This document shows positions 10,828 through 15,207 of a stretch of DNA of 64,000 bases, one piece after another. The number at the start of each line of letters is the position of its first letter. The stretch's first letter is position 1. The DNA comes from Coprobacillus sp. CAG:605. GTDB taxonomy: Bacteria > Bacillota_I > Bacilli_A > RF39 > UBA660. The position numbers and the translations under genes are program-made. Under the pieces are notes generated by a model. It ran no database searches and was not told where the DNA came from. It saw only the letters and a program-made list of their open reading frames with translations. The stretch covers positions 19,063 through 83,062 of the forward strand of contig HF998225.1 of assembly GCA_000433255.1 (NCBI GenBank). Direction: 5' to 3'.

Positions 10828-12102
10828 ATGAAAAAAACATTTAATGAAAATAAAAATTATTATGCGTTACTAGGAGTTAGTGAGACTGCTAGTAAAGATG
10901 AACTTGACAAAGTAATAGGAGACATCGCTCGAAATAGTTTTAATGGTCAAGAACTAAGTGACTTCCAAGTTGACATGTTAGCTGAACTTTGGGAAGCATA
11001 TAATGTTCTTTCTGAACCAACCGCAAGAAAAGAATATGATTTAGCAAGAAAGAGAAAAGCTAAAAATAATAAAACAACTGCATCTGAAACACCAGTTGAA
11101 AAAGTTTTCACTAAAGAAAGTGAACCACAAGCCGAAAGTATTGAGCCAAAAGATGTAGCCGGATTTGCCAATGCTATTGCAGATAACTTATCTCAAACTC
11201 TTGACGATGAATATGAAAATGATGAAGATGAACAAAACAACAGTAGAAAAAAAGTTGAAACAGTAGAAGAAGTTGACGAAGAAGAAAAAGAAAGTATCTT
11301 AGCCAAAGCGAAAAATATTATCTTTAGAAAATCAACAGCGGGACTTGCTCTAGTAATAATCGCTACCGCAGTTACATTAAGAAGCTGTAGTAAAGCTAAA
11401 AATATTAAAACTGAAGACCTAGCCATTCAAACTGAAAGTACTGCCGTAGATGACACTAATGAAGTCGTTGTAGAACCAACAAGCACACCAGAAGTAACAC
11501 CTACTCCAACACCAGAAGTTGACAAGGTTAATGATGAAAATTACATGCAAGAAAAAGCTAACAACTTATGGAACAAAGTAGCAAGTAGCAATAATTCCAA
11601 ATCATCATTACCAGATAGTAATGCATGCTATGAACTAATAAAATGGGCTCACCATTCAAATCCTAATTATACTGGAACTTATACTATATCAAATGACTAT
11701 GCTTATTCAATCTTAACTGACTTATATATGGATAACATTGATATTTCAAGTATCTTCGAAGGACTAGATAGCCAAGATGCTTTGGCAAAAATCCAAAGTG
11801 CTAAACAAAATCTTAATGCTAACAACAATACTTATGAAGACGAATACAATGCCTTAACAACATTAGTAAACAGTGCCAATATGATTAAAGGCGAAACATA
11901 CAATGACTATACTGCAACTATGGCTTTCGCTGTTTATGCTAACGAAATCGTATCATTACCAAATATTACAGATGCTAGAAGCACTGATACATCATATAAT
12001 GACAACTTTAACAAAGTATATTACCCAAGTGGTCAAGCAATACTTGCTAACCTAGTTGATGGTGCATACGATGAAGACGATGCTGTAAAGTTATCTAGAT
12101 AG
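10828..12102 (+). CDS. Membrane-anchored protein with N-terminal J-domain-like region lacking HPD, a PT-rich linker and an extracytoplasmic domain
   Basis: NYYALLGVSETASKDELDKV...AYNVLSEPTARKEYD matches J-domain helices I and III/IV, but no His-Pro-Asp lies between them. An acidic region, one TM (GLALVIIATAVTL) and the linker PTSTPEVTPTPTPE follow. Confidence 0.6.
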   Translation: MKKTFNENKNYYALLGVSETASKDELDKVIGDIARNSFNGQELSDFQVDMLAELWEAYNVLSEPTARKEYDLARKRKAKNNKTTASETPVEKVFTKESEPQAESIEPKDVAGFANAIADNLSQTLDDEYENDEDEQNNSRKKVETVEEVDEEEKESILAKAKNIIFRKSTAGLALVIIATAVTLRSCSKAKNIKTEDLAIQTESTAVDDTNEVVVEPTSTPEVTPTPTPEVDKVNDENYMQEKANNLWNKVASSNNSKSSLPDSNACYELIKWAHHSNPNYTGTYTISNDYAYSILTDLYMDNIDISSIFEGLDSQDALAKIQSAKQNLNANNNTYEDEYNALTTLVNSANMIKGETYNDYTATMAFAVYANEIVSLPNITDARSTDTSYNDNFNKVYYPSGQAILANLVDGAYDEDDAVKLSR

Positions 12103-12115
12103 TAGGTAGATTAAT

Positions 12116-13030
12116 ATGAAAGTAACAAACGAAGAAAGAAATGAAAAAATAGCAACTAAAGCTAAAGACATCTTAGGCAGTAAACCACTTATTGCTATAT
12201 GTGCTGTAATAATTGCTGGAAACCTAGCTTATCCTGGCATTTCCAAATTAGTTACTGCAAAAGAAGACAATAAAGCAAATACTAAACCCGTAGCAGAAGA
12301 AACTATGGTTGAAGCAACTCCAACCCCTACTCCAGAAATAACACCAGAGCCAACTGCTTATGCTTATTCAATTAATTATTCTAACGCTGAAAGTTTTTAC
12401 AACGAGATTTTAAACAATCGTAATACTTATGGTCAAGACTTTGCATCATCATTTCAAACTGTTGAAGATGTTAAAAGTTTTATCACATTTGTTACCAAAT
12501 TTGATGAATTATATAGCTATGATGAAAACTCTACTAACATTAACTCATTAGAACAATTTCAAGAAATAATTGCTAACTACTATGGTTCATGTATTAAATA
12601 CAACGTGACACCTAACCTAAGTAGTATTCTAAACAACTATCCATATGGAGCTCAAAAAGTTAGTGAAACTGAGCAAATAGCTAAAACCTTAATAAATGGT
12701 AACGGTAATGATTTCACAATTGTTAACAACTATTTTAAATGGTATAGTGACAATCTATGTAATGGTCAAATAAGTACAACGAGTATTAAAAATGCACCAA
12801 TTGTGGTTATTCTAAATGAAGAATATAAACAATATCGTAACCAAGGTAATATGGCATCCGCTAGAATAATTGAATTACCAAAAGATGTTGATGGTAATAT
12901 ATGTCCCAATACAATAGATAAAGTCATGCTTAATGAAATTGATTATACAAAAGGTGCTAGTGGTATGTTTGATATCGTATATGATACAATTGAAAGCAAA
13001 TGTAATACCTATAAATTAGAAAGGAAATAA
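12116..13030 (+). CDS. N-terminally anchored protein with PT-rich linker, unknown function
   Basis: A single TM (LIAICAVIIAGNLAY) is followed by ATPTPTPEITPEPTA and an approx 220-aa domain with 4 Cys. It lies 13 nt after the upstream stop and has an AGGTAG RBS. Confidence 0.55.
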   Translation: MKVTNEERNEKIATKAKDILGSKPLIAICAVIIAGNLAYPGISKLVTAKEDNKANTKPVAEETMVEATPTPTPEITPEPTAYAYSINYSNAESFYNEILNNRNTYGQDFASSFQTVEDVKSFITFVTKFDELYSYDENSTNINSLEQFQEIIANYYGSCIKYNVTPNLSSILNNYPYGAQKVSETEQIAKTLINGNGNDFTIVNNYFKWYSDNLCNGQISTTSIKNAPIVVILNEEYKQYRNQGNMASARIIELPKDVDGNICPNTIDKVMLNEIDYTKGASGMFDIVYDTIESKCNTYKLERK

Positions 13031-13032
13031 TT

Positions 13033-15207
13033 ATGTACGAAGAAAATAGTTACAAATTAAAAATTGATTGGAAAGCTCTTATAATTAGAGCCATACTAGT
13101 ATTATTATTTATAATATTAGTAATTTGGTTATTCCCAATGCCAAAATTAGACACATTCTACAATAGAATATTCAACGAGAACATGAATACAATGTCTACT
13201 GCTGCTAAAAACTATTTTAACAACAACTTACCAGAAGACATTGGAAACACTTCTACTATTAAATTAGAAGAAATGATAAATAAGAACTTATTAATTGAGT
13301 TTAAAGATAAAAATAACGAATCTTGTAATAAAACTAACTCTTTTGCTCAAATTACCAAAACTGGAACTAATGAATATGTTCTTAAAACTCAACTATCTTG
13401 TCAAGATGAAACTGATTATGTTTTAGAAACATTAAATACTACCCCTGCTAATACAAGTAATATAAATACATCAAATGCAAACAATCAAATTAAAGATGAT
13501 GGCAATAACACTTCAAACACAACAAATACTAATATAAAAAATACCATCAATAACGATGAAGATGATGACGAAGATATTATTAAGGATGATGTTACATATG
13601 ATAAAGATGGAAACATCGCTGGTATAATTGAATATGAATTTAAAAAGCCAATATATTCAAGTACTAAATCTTATTATTGTCCAGATGGCTATGTCTTAGA
13701 TGGAAAAACATGCTATAAAGAAGAAACTGGCGAAACAATTGAAGCTACTAAAGAATATTTTGAAGACAGAATTGAAACCACAGATGCTAAAAAAAGCGAA
13801 GGTGAAAAATACACTGTTAAAGCTGACACTATTAAAAAAGTAGATAAAGTTGAACAAGTTTGTCCAGAAGGATATACTTTAAATAAAAACATGTGCTATA
13901 AATATAAAGAAGCTACTGTAAACCCTGGTTCAACTAAATATACTTGTCCAAGTGGTTACACTTTAGATGGTACTAAATGTGTTCAAACAATCGATGCTAC
14001 TAAAAATACATCAACAGACACAAGCTACTCTTGTCCTAATGGTGGAACACTAAACGGCGCTAAATGTAATAAACAAGATTCAATTGCAGCCGATTATCAC
14101 AATGGTTCAAATAGTTGCAGTTGCCCTAATGGTGGTCATTTAAATGGTACTAGATGTGAGAAAGAAGATAGCATTAATGCTGATTATCACAATGGTACAA
14201 CAAGTTGCTCATGTCCATCAGGATACTCTCCAAGTGGAAGCTCATGTACAAGAACAACATCTTATGGCGCATCAGCAAGTGGATATTGGACTAACCCAAC
14301 AACCCAAACATCAAAAACCCCATTATCAGAATACAATAATGGTAAACAAAAAAGATGGCTTGGAAGCAAATCATGTAATGCTAGAGGATGTACATATACA
14401 TATTATGTTTCTAACTATGTAACATCATATAGTTGTCCTAATGGTGGATCACTAAGCGGATCAACATGCTATAAAACTGAAACAGCTGCCCAAAATTGTT
14501 CAACTACTTCTGGTTATTATACATGTAGTAGAGGAAGTTTAAGAGGTGACAGATGTTATTATGATGCTTCATACAACGCCTCATGCTCAACATCAAATGG
14601 CTACTATACATGTAGCAAAGGAACATTAAATGGTAATAGATGTTACTATGATGCATCATATAATGCCACTAAAAATGATAGTTCAAAAACAACTTATACT
14701 TGTCCAAGTGGCTATGAACAAAAAGATGATAAATGTACAAAAACTATAGATGCAAATAAAAATACAACTGAAACAACCTATACTTGCCCTGAAGGTTATA
14801 CTAAAGAAGGTACAACATGCTATATAACAGCTAAACCTGAAGAAAAAATTACATATAAATATTCTTGTCCTGAAGGATTCACTGCAACTGGTGAAGGCGA
14901 AAAAATGACATGTTCAAAAGAAATGCAAAACGAAGGCAAAACATATTGTGAAGATGCAGATGCCACTCTAGATGGTGATAAATGTATCAAAAAAATTATT
15001 GGAGCATTTAAAGGTTATAGCTGCCCAGATGGCTACATTCTAAATGGTAATAAGTGTACAAAGAAAACAACAAGTTGTATGAGTGCACTGGTCGATACAA
15101 GCACTTCAGTATCTTATAAATATACATGGAGTAGAAAGAAAACATTAGATGGTTGGACTCCAACAGGTAAAACTAGAACTATTAAATCTACTCAATTAAT
15201 TAAATAG
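13033..15207 (+). CDS. N-terminally anchored surface protein with about 14 Cys-rich C-P-x-G-[YG]-x-x-x-G-x-x-C repeats
   Basis: It starts 2 nt after the upstream stop. One TM is followed by an approx 90-aa domain, an Asn/Thr/Asp low-complexity spacer and then the repeats (YTCPSGYTLDGTKC, YSCPNGGTLNGAKC, YTCPEGYTKEGTTC and others). It contains roughly three dozen Cys in total. Confidence 0.7.
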   Translation: MYEENSYKLKIDWKALIIRAILVLLFIILVIWLFPMPKLDTFYNRIFNENMNTMSTAAKNYFNNNLPEDIGNTSTIKLEEMINKNLLIEFKDKNNESCNKTNSFAQITKTGTNEYVLKTQLSCQDETDYVLETLNTTPANTSNINTSNANNQIKDDGNNTSNTTNTNIKNTINNDEDDDEDIIKDDVTYDKDGNIAGIIEYEFKKPIYSSTKSYYCPDGYVLDGKTCYKEETGETIEATKEYFEDRIETTDAKKSEGEKYTVKADTIKKVDKVEQVCPEGYTLNKNMCYKYKEATVNPGSTKYTCPSGYTLDGTKCVQTIDATKNTSTDTSYSCPNGGTLNGAKCNKQDSIAADYHNGSNSCSCPNGGHLNGTRCEKEDSINADYHNGTTSCSCPSGYSPSGSSCTRTTSYGASASGYWTNPTTQTSKTPLSEYNNGKQKRWLGSKSCNARGCTYTYYVSNYVTSYSCPNGGSLSGSTCYKTETAAQNCSTTSGYYTCSRGSLRGDRCYYDASYNASCSTSNGYYTCSKGTLNGNRCYYDASYNATKNDSSKTTYTCPSGYEQKDDKCTKTIDANKNTTETTYTCPEGYTKEGTTCYITAKPEEKITYKYSCPEGFTATGEGEKMTCSKEMQNEGKTYCEDADATLDGDKCIKKIIGAFKGYSCPDGYILNGNKCTKKTTSCMSALVDTSTSVSYKYTWSRKKTLDGWTPTGKTRTIKSTQLIK
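13672..15060 (+). repeat. In-frame array of Cys-pair repeat modules including two recent internal duplications
   Basis: Two pairs of near-duplicate DNA and protein segments are visible. One is ADYHNGSNSCSCPNGGHLNGTRCEKEDSI / ADYHNGTTSCSCPSGY. The other is GYYTCSRGSLRGDRCYYDASYNA / GYYTCSKGTLNGNRCYYDASYNA. Confidence 0.8.

Follow-up and report, generated by a model that had tools for sequence, protein, structure and literature searches.

What is the function of three adjacent genes for membrane-anchored proteins that public records name 'hypothetical' throughout? The question is raised by a locus of Coprobacillus sp. CAG:605 (assembly GCA_000433255.1), which was analyzed within a stretch of 64,000 nt (contig HF998225.1, positions 19,063-83,062), hereafter called the window. 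RF39-type Bacilli are widespread gut bacteria with reduced genomes, almost all of them uncultured, and to our knowledge their cell surface has hardly been characterised. An earlier note, made from the letters of this DNA, had described the three genes as an operon for a J-like protein without the HPD motif, a protein with a proline- and threonine-rich (PT) linker and a giant Cys-repeat protein, and had proposed a dedicated surface complex coupled to a cytoplasmic chaperone-like adaptor. The interpretation that we favour, and to which we give about an even chance of being correct, is a lineage-specific surface rod (gene 3) together with a split two-domain membrane-proximal partner (genes 1 and 2) bearing a non-catalytic J-like head. 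The surface complex was thus retained, because the unit is conserved, the ectodomains of genes 1 and 2 occur fused and the proteins evolve in a surface-like manner, whereas the adaptor as a working J-domain was not. This interpretation builds on direct observations of gene structure, synteny, fusions, HPD loss, an all-beta repeat model, fast evolution and the lack of known relatives.

The three-gene unit and its relatives

The unit comprises the following parts, each given with the predicted nature of its product.

10828-12102, plus strand: gene 1, an open reading frame (ORF) of 424 aa with a J-like head, an acidic low-complexity linker, a transmembrane segment (TM), a PT linker and an ectodomain
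10855-11040, plus strand: J-like domain of gene 1, aa 10-71, with FNG (10939-10947) in place of the catalytic HPD
11332-11379, plus strand: TM of gene 1, aa 169-184, the only hydrophobic 19-mer window above 1.6
11479-11517, plus strand: PT-rich linker of gene 1, TSTPEVTPTPTPE in the translation
11518-12099, plus strand: ectodomain of gene 1 (family G1E, about 190 aa), of no known family
12116-13030, plus strand: gene 2, an ORF of 304 aa with a cytoplasmic tail of 22 aa, a TM, a PT linker and an ectodomain of about 220 aa
12182-12241, plus strand: TM of gene 2
12314-12358, plus strand: PT linker of gene 2, ATPTPTPEITPEPTA
12371-13027, plus strand: ectodomain of gene 2 (family G2E)
13033-15207, plus strand: gene 3, an ORF of 724 aa for a signal-anchored Cys-hairpin repeat protein
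13075-13134, plus strand: TM or uncleaved signal anchor of gene 3, aa 15-34, hydrophobicity up to 3.17, helix at aa 13-33 in the AlphaFold2 model
13147-13434, plus strand: membrane-proximal N-module of gene 3, aa 39-134, a long helix and a four-stranded sheet
13435-13581, plus strand: N/T/D-rich low-complexity spacer of gene 3, aa 135-183 (49 aa), variable among homologues, with a predicted local distance difference test score (pLDDT) below 50 at aa 138-182
13588-15072, plus strand: beta-hairpin repeat rod of gene 3, about aa 186-680, with units of the type Y-x-C-P-x-G-Y/G-x-L-x-G-x-x-C
15112-15180, plus strand: C-terminal tip motif of gene 3, SYKYTWS...LDGWTPTGKTRT (core YKYTWS...GWTPTGKT)

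The coordinates of the three ORFs, the gaps of 13 and 2 nt between them and their standing as the sole multi-gene unit on the plus strand, among 64 ORFs of at least 120 aa in the window, were re-found exactly as the earlier note had given them. Each gene is preceded by a Shine-Dalgarno-like purine run. A single strongly hydrophobic segment occurs in each product, in line with the one TM per protein noted before, and the two PT linkers are indeed present at aa 218-230 of gene 1 and aa 67-81 of gene 2.

Full-length homologues of gene 3 number more than 544, and the gene was found in 59 loci of species-representative genomes; in approximately 40 species-level metagenome-assembled genomes (MAGs) it is kept full-length at 25-50% identity. 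Its carriers are nearly all MAGs labelled as uncultured Bacilli, 'Tenericutes', Firmicutes, 'Mycoplasma sp. CAG:956' or Candidatus Coprovivens, the last of which has been placed in the GTDB order RF39 (PMC8035907). Relatives of gene 3 were also seen in MAGs of Muribaculaceae (Bacteroidota; loci L037, L042, L058 and L062); these sequences resemble those of the Bacilli, hence a binning error is likely. For gene 1, 147 homologues were retrieved, with the same architecture throughout the three-gene loci, and iterated searches with hidden Markov models recovered the G1E family from three-gene loci only. The exhaustive HMMER search with gene 2 gave only 38 clusters among 1.84 billion representatives. 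The G2E alignment contains invariant Y20, F24, Y70, E101 and C178 as well as a near-invariant YYxSC motif.

Gene 2 matched no family of Pfam or NCBIfam, and the G1E profile had no credible relative among the PDB sequences. When the profiles of both partner ectodomains and of gene 3 were compared with PDB sequences, nothing came up except two compositional artefacts, a designed zinc finger and an engineered protein. Profile searches with all three proteins and structure searches with gene 3 thus left the three ectodomains, which the earlier note had not recognised either, without a family in Pfam, NCBIfam or PDB, and a literature search on bacterial membrane J-like proteins and Ca. Coprovivens gave nothing on the operon. 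The co-occurrence of the triad as a conserved unit was borne out by synteny in dozens of diverged genomes. Hence, neither of the two outcomes that had been named as fatal to the original proposal was encountered, namely a lack of synteny in relatives or the assignment of the genes to unrelated characterised families.

The three proteins change quickly. Where two genomes share 84-87% identity in RpoA and 91-94% in S11, the corresponding values are only 42-50% for gene 3, 32-35% for gene 2 and 24-36% for gene 1. Judged from these comparisons, such fast change together with a repeat number between 7 and 19 looks like the pattern of outward-facing proteins. The operon is among the most consistently placed lineage-specific loci of RF39, and its products evolve like proteins facing the host, phages or neighbouring cells; taken together, this makes it a prime candidate for how RF39 Bacilli contact their surroundings.

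Modules and repeats of gene 3

Calling gene 3 'giant' was an overstatement for a protein of 724 aa, while its description as a Cys-repeat ectodomain proved right. It contains 37 Cys, 35 of them in the ectodomain, and at least 12 units of the pattern C-P-x-G-Y/G-x-L-x-G-x-x-C. A regular expression counted 12 hairpin units in gene 3 of the window; homologues have 7-19 units, and the N- and C-terminal modules stay invariant while this copy number shifts. Within the N-module, C98 and C123 are invariant among 98 sequences, and the tip has Y697, W699, S700, G707, W708, T711 and G712 as invariant positions. Distant proteins with the N-module also end in the tip motif of gene 3, and in paralogues the two modules flank other repeats, such as immunoglobulin-like and Listeria-Bacteroides repeats. 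The neighbours of the distant N-module paralogues (ABC exporters, GNAT and YtxH proteins) included no recurrent partner and thus offered no clue to function.

The AlphaFold2 model of gene 3, calculated with 98 homologues, has a mean pLDDT of 76.7 and an all-beta ectodomain. In this model the TM helix is followed by a helix at aa 39-62 on four strands, a disordered stretch at aa 138-182 and finally hairpins and ribbons at pLDDT 80-95. Folded alone, the N-module reached a pLDDT of 83.8 and a predicted template modelling score of 0.61. The full model found no structural match in PDB, and Foldseek returned nothing for the N-module against PDB at E<=0.001. Hence, the locus appears to provide a membrane-proximal module that can be modelled with confidence and has no structural relative. 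The order of TM helix, long helix and four strands had prompted a comparison with type IV pilins and pseudopilins, but no pilin occurred in the Foldseek top 50, and a pilin-like nature of the N-module was rejected. The prepilin leader G|F/M-x-x-x-E is absent from gene 3, which starts with MYEENSYKLKIDWKALII... and gave no N_methyl match. An LPXTG sorting signal was not found either; the protein ends with ...GKTRTIKSTQLIK (...TRTIKSTQLIK), and its sole hydrophobic segment is N-terminal. Two homologues carry the automatic JGI name TraN, which was rejected: no TraN match was obtained with Pfam, and the surrounding genes (ssrA, pheST, ribosomal genes) include none for transfer.

The closest known likeness of the repeat is the C-terminal hairpin of the epidermal growth factor (EGF)-like type, cEGF (PF12662), with which it shares the local pattern C-x-C-P-x-G-Y/G-x-L-x-G-x-x-C, for example in CSCPNGGHLNGTRC, and the predicted two-Cys beta-hairpin. 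However, gene 3 scored 23.5 bits with this model, which is under the cut-off of 26.6, and the homologue P0206 reached 31.2 bits by summing, without an individually significant stretch. In contrast to the six-Cys EGF unit, the gene 3 repeat has two Cys per unit, mostly spaced as C-x10-C, and stands in a bacterial, membrane-anchored context. Gene 3 also resembles the sortase-anchored adhesins of Gram-positive bacteria in its small beta-rich repeats, copy-number variation, low-complexity spacers and fast evolution; it differs from them by its N-terminal TM anchor, its dedicated membrane partner operon and a repeat type that is not in Pfam.

Hairpins of the gene 3 type recur elsewhere. Only one of 2.9 million viral contigs carries a relative, namely the inovirus-like contig L065 of 7 kb (IMGVR_UViG_3300025396_000419), which encodes a Rep_1/G2P-type replication protein and a Zot ATPase; at 2849-5265 it has two secreted proteins in the position of adsorption proteins, made of YSCPNGGTLSGxxC hairpins. 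In Pseudoalteromonas sp. T1lg23B (L056, 1814-12514), a secreted protein of 3,566 aa with 256 Cys contains 62 hairpin units and belongs to no Pfam family. From these sequences, the two-Cys hairpin is a widespread extracellular bacterial repeat for which no profile model exists; what is specific to the lineage is the N-module together with the C-terminal tip and the partners. We count the recurrence of the hairpin in such extracellular settings in favour of a surface location of gene 3.

Partner ectodomains and the J-like head

In about 38 loci a gene for a membrane- or export-targeted protein lies directly upstream of the gene 3 orthologue, and three families of partner ectodomains occur in this position. 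The first form, found in the window, consists of J-like-TM-G1E followed by TM-G2E (L001, L004-L010, L034 and L038). The second has a single partner with a third ectodomain family of about 300 aa (Coprovivens-type), usually with a J-like and TM head; where this head is missing, the anchor is a lipobox LTGC (L019 and L029) or a signal peptide (L035). The third form, in a sister clade, has a G2E-family protein with a twin-arginine (Tat) signal upstream of gene 3; the Pfam TAT_signal model scored 30.6 bits in L032, compared to its cut-off of 22.7, with the motif SRRDFLKGA. Comparison by hhalign related G2E to the Tat-signal proteins at 93.8% and gave no relationship of the Coprovivens-type ectodomain to G1E or G2E. 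Gene 2 of the window has no twin-arginine motif and a TM anchor in its place. That the partner also exists as a lipoprotein or as a Sec- or Tat-exported protein indicates that the J-like head is accessory to an extracytoplasmic pairing, and this ectodomain pairing would, on sequence evidence, be the core of the system.

The association of genes 1 and 2 that the earlier note had assumed gained support from relatives in which both ectodomains stand in one chain. Several of the clusters obtained with gene 2 are proteins of 574-632 aa in which one TM is followed by G1E and then G2E, an architecture seen in P0248, P0249, P0251 and P0252; P0252, for instance, matched gene 1 at aa 115-254 (E=3e-20) and gene 2 at aa 340-569 (E=1e-44). 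P0276 is a J-like-TM-G1E-G2E fusion with the G1E part at E=7e-15. A further protein, P0277, has two tandem J-like heads, with MQD and EPD at the HPD position, and a single ectodomain, in which the residues that align with gene 1 (E=4e-6) overlap those that align with gene 2 (E=2e-8); it may represent an evolutionary intermediate. Moreover, the juxtamembrane and TM regions of genes 1 and 2 are alike (E=0.001), with an acidic run followed by A-x-K-A-K/R directly before the TM (aa 148-163 in gene 1, aa 5-20 in gene 2), and this presumably cytoplasmic motif is also present in the partners of L003, L013 and L021, including some of the Coprovivens type. Collectively, the fusions, P0277 and the juxtamembrane likeness argue for one ancestral partner; that its ectodomains were duplicated and that it was split in the lineage of the window is suggested by these sequences.

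The absence of HPD from the J-like head, as described in the earlier note, was corroborated, and the J signature itself was recognised. The head of gene 1 scored 28.2 bits with Pfam DnaJ (PF00226), just above the cut-off of 27.8 and hence borderline, while J-like heads of the second partner form, in L003 and L026, reached 39.1 and 34.4 bits. With phmmer it matched solved J-domains end to end (E=7e-6), and FNG was aligned under the HPD of the solved J-domain of Thermus thermophilus DnaJ2 (PDB 4j7z/9dyv). As in canonical DnaJ/Hsp40, the patterns of helices I/II (YYxxLGV..A...EI) and III/IV (L.EA..VL.D...R..YD) could be recognised; unlike these proteins, gene 1 has neither HPD nor a basic helix II, and it is devoid of G/F, zinc-finger and client-binding domains. 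The NCBIfam DnaJ models gave 19-33 bits against cut-offs of 338-619.

The conserved J fold and the conserved gene order next to a client-like gene 3 would fit a working Hsp70 co-chaperone adaptor, which brings DnaK to the membrane for the export or folding of the other two proteins. However, HPD was found in none of 19 non-redundant related heads. Among the heads, the segment of helix II carries a net charge between -3 and +3 (0 in the window), compared to +5 in T. thermophilus DnaJ2, which means that the basic DnaK-docking patch is lost. Both the HPD histidine and a basic helix II are required for the stimulation of the Hsp70 ATPase. To judge from its sequence, the J-like head should therefore be unable to act as an Hsp70 co-chaperone, and the replacement of the head in sister clades likewise speaks against the cytoplasmic chaperone-like adaptor of the earlier note. 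We regard a functional DnaK adaptor as very unlikely. Since the J fold signature is kept across the order though HPD is gone, the head is rather under selection for something else. A J fold without HPD is also known from the DNAJD class, to which Pam16/Tim16 belongs; the J-like domain of Pam16 is reported to act by binding Pam18 rather than by activating Hsp70 (PMC3806816). In contrast to gene 1, Pam16 is eukaryotic and mitochondrial, works in another membrane system and has no ectodomain, and no gene for a J-domain partner was seen in the operon of gene 1.

A second precedent for a J-like head on a membrane protein is the division protein ZipN/Ftn2 of cyanobacteria (ARC6 in chloroplasts), whose N-terminal cytoplasmic J-like domain acts independently of Hsp70 and is followed by a single TM and an extracytoplasmic C-terminus, in a protein inherited vertically within one lineage (PMC6391411). 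Gene 1 shares this architecture, and by analogy the locus might encode a housekeeping scaffold of the envelope or division apparatus, in which the J-like head tethers a component of the cytoskeleton or divisome and the ectodomains and rod link the membrane to the wall. The operon is present as a single locus across the order and is tightly linked to ssrA and to the ribosomal-protein/secY/rpoA cluster, as such a function would demand. On the other hand, the cytoplasmic part of gene 1 measures about 165 aa, compared to about 600 aa in ZipN, and gene 1 stands with a probable paralogue and a Cys-hairpin rod, neither of which ZipN has. Its sequence has no relationship to ZipN/ARC6 beyond the J fold, the ARC6-type C-terminal domain was not detected with Pfam or NCBIfam, and its ectodomain has no PDB relative. 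Furthermore, several clades keep gene 3 and a partner ectodomain without any J-like head, and the proteins change far faster than the neighbouring housekeeping genes and vary in repeat number, which is more typical of outward-facing proteins. We therefore consider the scaffold unlikely.

Returning to the surface rod and its split partner, we propose a module that would be vertically inherited, exposed at the cell surface and specific to RF39-type gut Bacilli. Genes 1-3 would be transcribed on one mRNA from a conserved sigma-70-type promoter back-to-back with that of ssrA, and all three products would be inserted with the N-terminus inside and the C-terminus outside via a single uncleaved anchor. 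Gene 3 would be the structural product, in which the alpha/beta module and the disordered N/T/D-rich spacer carry approximately 500 residues of two-Cys beta-hairpins as an elongated rod that probably ends in the conserved Trp/Gly-rich tip at the cell surface. Genes 1 and 2 would be two halves of one partner, with ectodomains that are probably distant paralogues and that may be kept just above the membrane by the PT-rich linkers; their most likely task there is to dock, assemble or stabilise the gene 3 N-module. The J-like head is probably a domain for protein-protein contact or positioning, and it is dispensable in clades where the partner is a lipoprotein or is exported via Tat or Sec. The biological role could be adhesion or another outward-facing contact. 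A more specific version of this proposal, a kind of trans-membrane surface apparatus not recognised before, appears doubtful to us: the partner would hold the N-module of the rod, possibly covalently via the conserved odd Cys, the degenerate J-like head would link rod assembly or placement to a factor in the cytoplasm, and the promoter region shared with ssrA might even permit co-regulation with trans-translation.

Several points weigh against the rod and its split partner. First, conservation as a single, order-wide and ssrA-linked locus is also expected of a housekeeping envelope function. Second, the proposal assumes extracellular disulfides in a strict gut anaerobe. Third, the number of ectodomain Cys is odd in 89 of 98 gene 3 homologues. 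The extra Cys is C682 (15076-15078) in the clade of the window, whereas other clades and paralogues have a GCxxxCxxxxC cluster after the N-module; by its sequence pattern, the odd Cys is a hint of a thiol that is either free or disulfide-bonded to another molecule. Fourth, direct comparison of G1E and G2E by hhalign gave a probability of 0.1%, that is, no similarity, so that their paralogy rests on one bridging protein and is suggestive only.

In another reading, genes 1 and 2 would not be permanent partners of gene 3 in a complex but extracytoplasmic factors dedicated to folding its 35-Cys ectodomain, with chaperone or thiol-handling activity. The odd Cys count in 89 of 98 clients, a hint of an intermolecular thiol, the tight co-occurrence with a Cys-rich client, the invariant Cys and the YYxSC motif of G2E, and the Tat signal in one clade, which implies a partner domain folded before export, would agree with such a role. 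But the partners lack a CxxC motif and any signature of thioredoxin-like proteins or other known chaperones, and three unrelated ectodomain families in the same position fit a docking surface better than conserved catalysis. Hence, dedicated folding factors seem improbable.

Regardless of the exact role of the partner, the operon brings together known elements, the J fold and an EGF-like hairpin, and families that Pfam, NCBIfam and PDB do not contain. The different partner forms (J-like with TM, lipoprotein, Tat and fused) represent a natural series on the J fold after the loss of HPD, and neither the hairpin repeat with its two Cys nor the two or three families of ectodomains are represented in Pfam or PDB.

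ssrA, the promoter region and the flanking genes

The regulatory parts and the divergent neighbour of the operon are the following.

10347-10701, minus strand: ssrA (transfer-messenger RNA, tmRNA), found by ARAGORN and with 111.3 bits by Rfam RF00023, tag peptide DETYSFNTPVFA
10710-10718, minus strand: extended -10 box of ssrA, TGTTATAAT, read from the sequence, 8 nt before the tmRNA 5' end
10757-10785, plus strand: operon promoter with -35 TTGACA, 17-nt spacer and TG-extended -10 TAGGAT, scoring 10/12 in the consensus scan
15202-15223, plus strand: terminator-like hairpin and T-run from a scan, AAATAGGCAATTAAGCCTATTT TTTATTT, overlapping the stop codon of gene 3

No other site in the region matches the consensus as well as the promoter proposed in the earlier note, TTGACA-17-TAGGAT. 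Promoter-like matches numbered 27 there compared to 31.0 +/- 5.5 in shuffled sequences; without an excess over the shuffles, the consensus match alone is no evidence for a promoter. However, the -35 TTGAC and the -10 TAnnAT are invariant and fixed in spacing in 8 loci whose proteins have diverged down to 25-50% identity, hence the promoter is settled by its conservation and not by its match. Between the -10 box and the ribosome-binding site, the 5' untranslated region of L001, L004, L007 and L008 contains the palindrome CCATAAAnnTTAAATGG, which is degenerate in the window (about 10790-10815) and could be an operator or an RNA hairpin. At the other end, the single terminator was likewise recovered as one plus-strand hairpin, although it is weak, with an 8-bp stem that has only 3 G-C pairs.

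The stretch of about 660 nt upstream of the operon, which the earlier note had left as an empty gap, contains ssrA. Its promoter and that of the operon stand back-to-back approximately 40 nt apart, an arrangement that is conserved across the order, and the ATTATA core of the ssrA -10 box is kept in 8 loci. In 34 of 39 orthologous loci, including those where gene 3 identity has fallen to 25-28%, the operon has a divergent tmRNA gene on its upstream side at a distance of 41-267 nt; none of 14 more distant loci has one. Thus, ssrA is a conserved divergent neighbour; it is context and not a component of the operon. The tag peptides vary among relatives, for example DNNESSIGAFTPAFA and DETNYSFAPAFA, with an atypical EHSYLNLSIV in L003.

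The vicinity of ssrA, which is a common integration site, raises the question whether the operon belongs to a mobile, phage-derived or anti-phage defence island. Besides the inovirus-like contig with its gene 3-type hairpins, a Foldseek search of gene 3 against viral models gave one match, to an unnamed viral protein of 981 aa (E=1.7e-8). Yet the operon is located on the 5' (promoter) side of ssrA and not at its 3' end, its GC content equals that of the surroundings, and it keeps its place in genomes diverged to as little as 25% identity. In addition, PADLOC gave no matches, those with PHROG were limited to the J-like head, and tblastn found no match in 50,697 phage genomes. An island of this kind is therefore largely refuted, and we leave it only a very slight chance.

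Beyond the operon, the minus strand at 15260-16530 encodes an 81-aa DUF1292 protein, 70-78% identical across the order, and an acidic low-complexity protein of 333 aa. This pair sits between the operon and rplQ/rpoA; in L003 and L004 it goes with the ribosomal cluster and not with the operon. On the 3' side of ssrA, a protein of 425 aa with a C-terminal TM anchor (8889-10166, minus strand) matched no family except for a weak EssA-like match over the TM region. The left flank is rich in envelope genes (3630-4998, minus strand; 5145-5981, plus strand; 7883-8869, minus strand), which encode two camelysin/TasA-like Peptidase_M73 proteins, an M23 peptidase with SH3, a double-LysM protein and a bacterial PH-domain protein. 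The peptidoglycan-related domains among these predicted products suggest that the organism has a cell wall.

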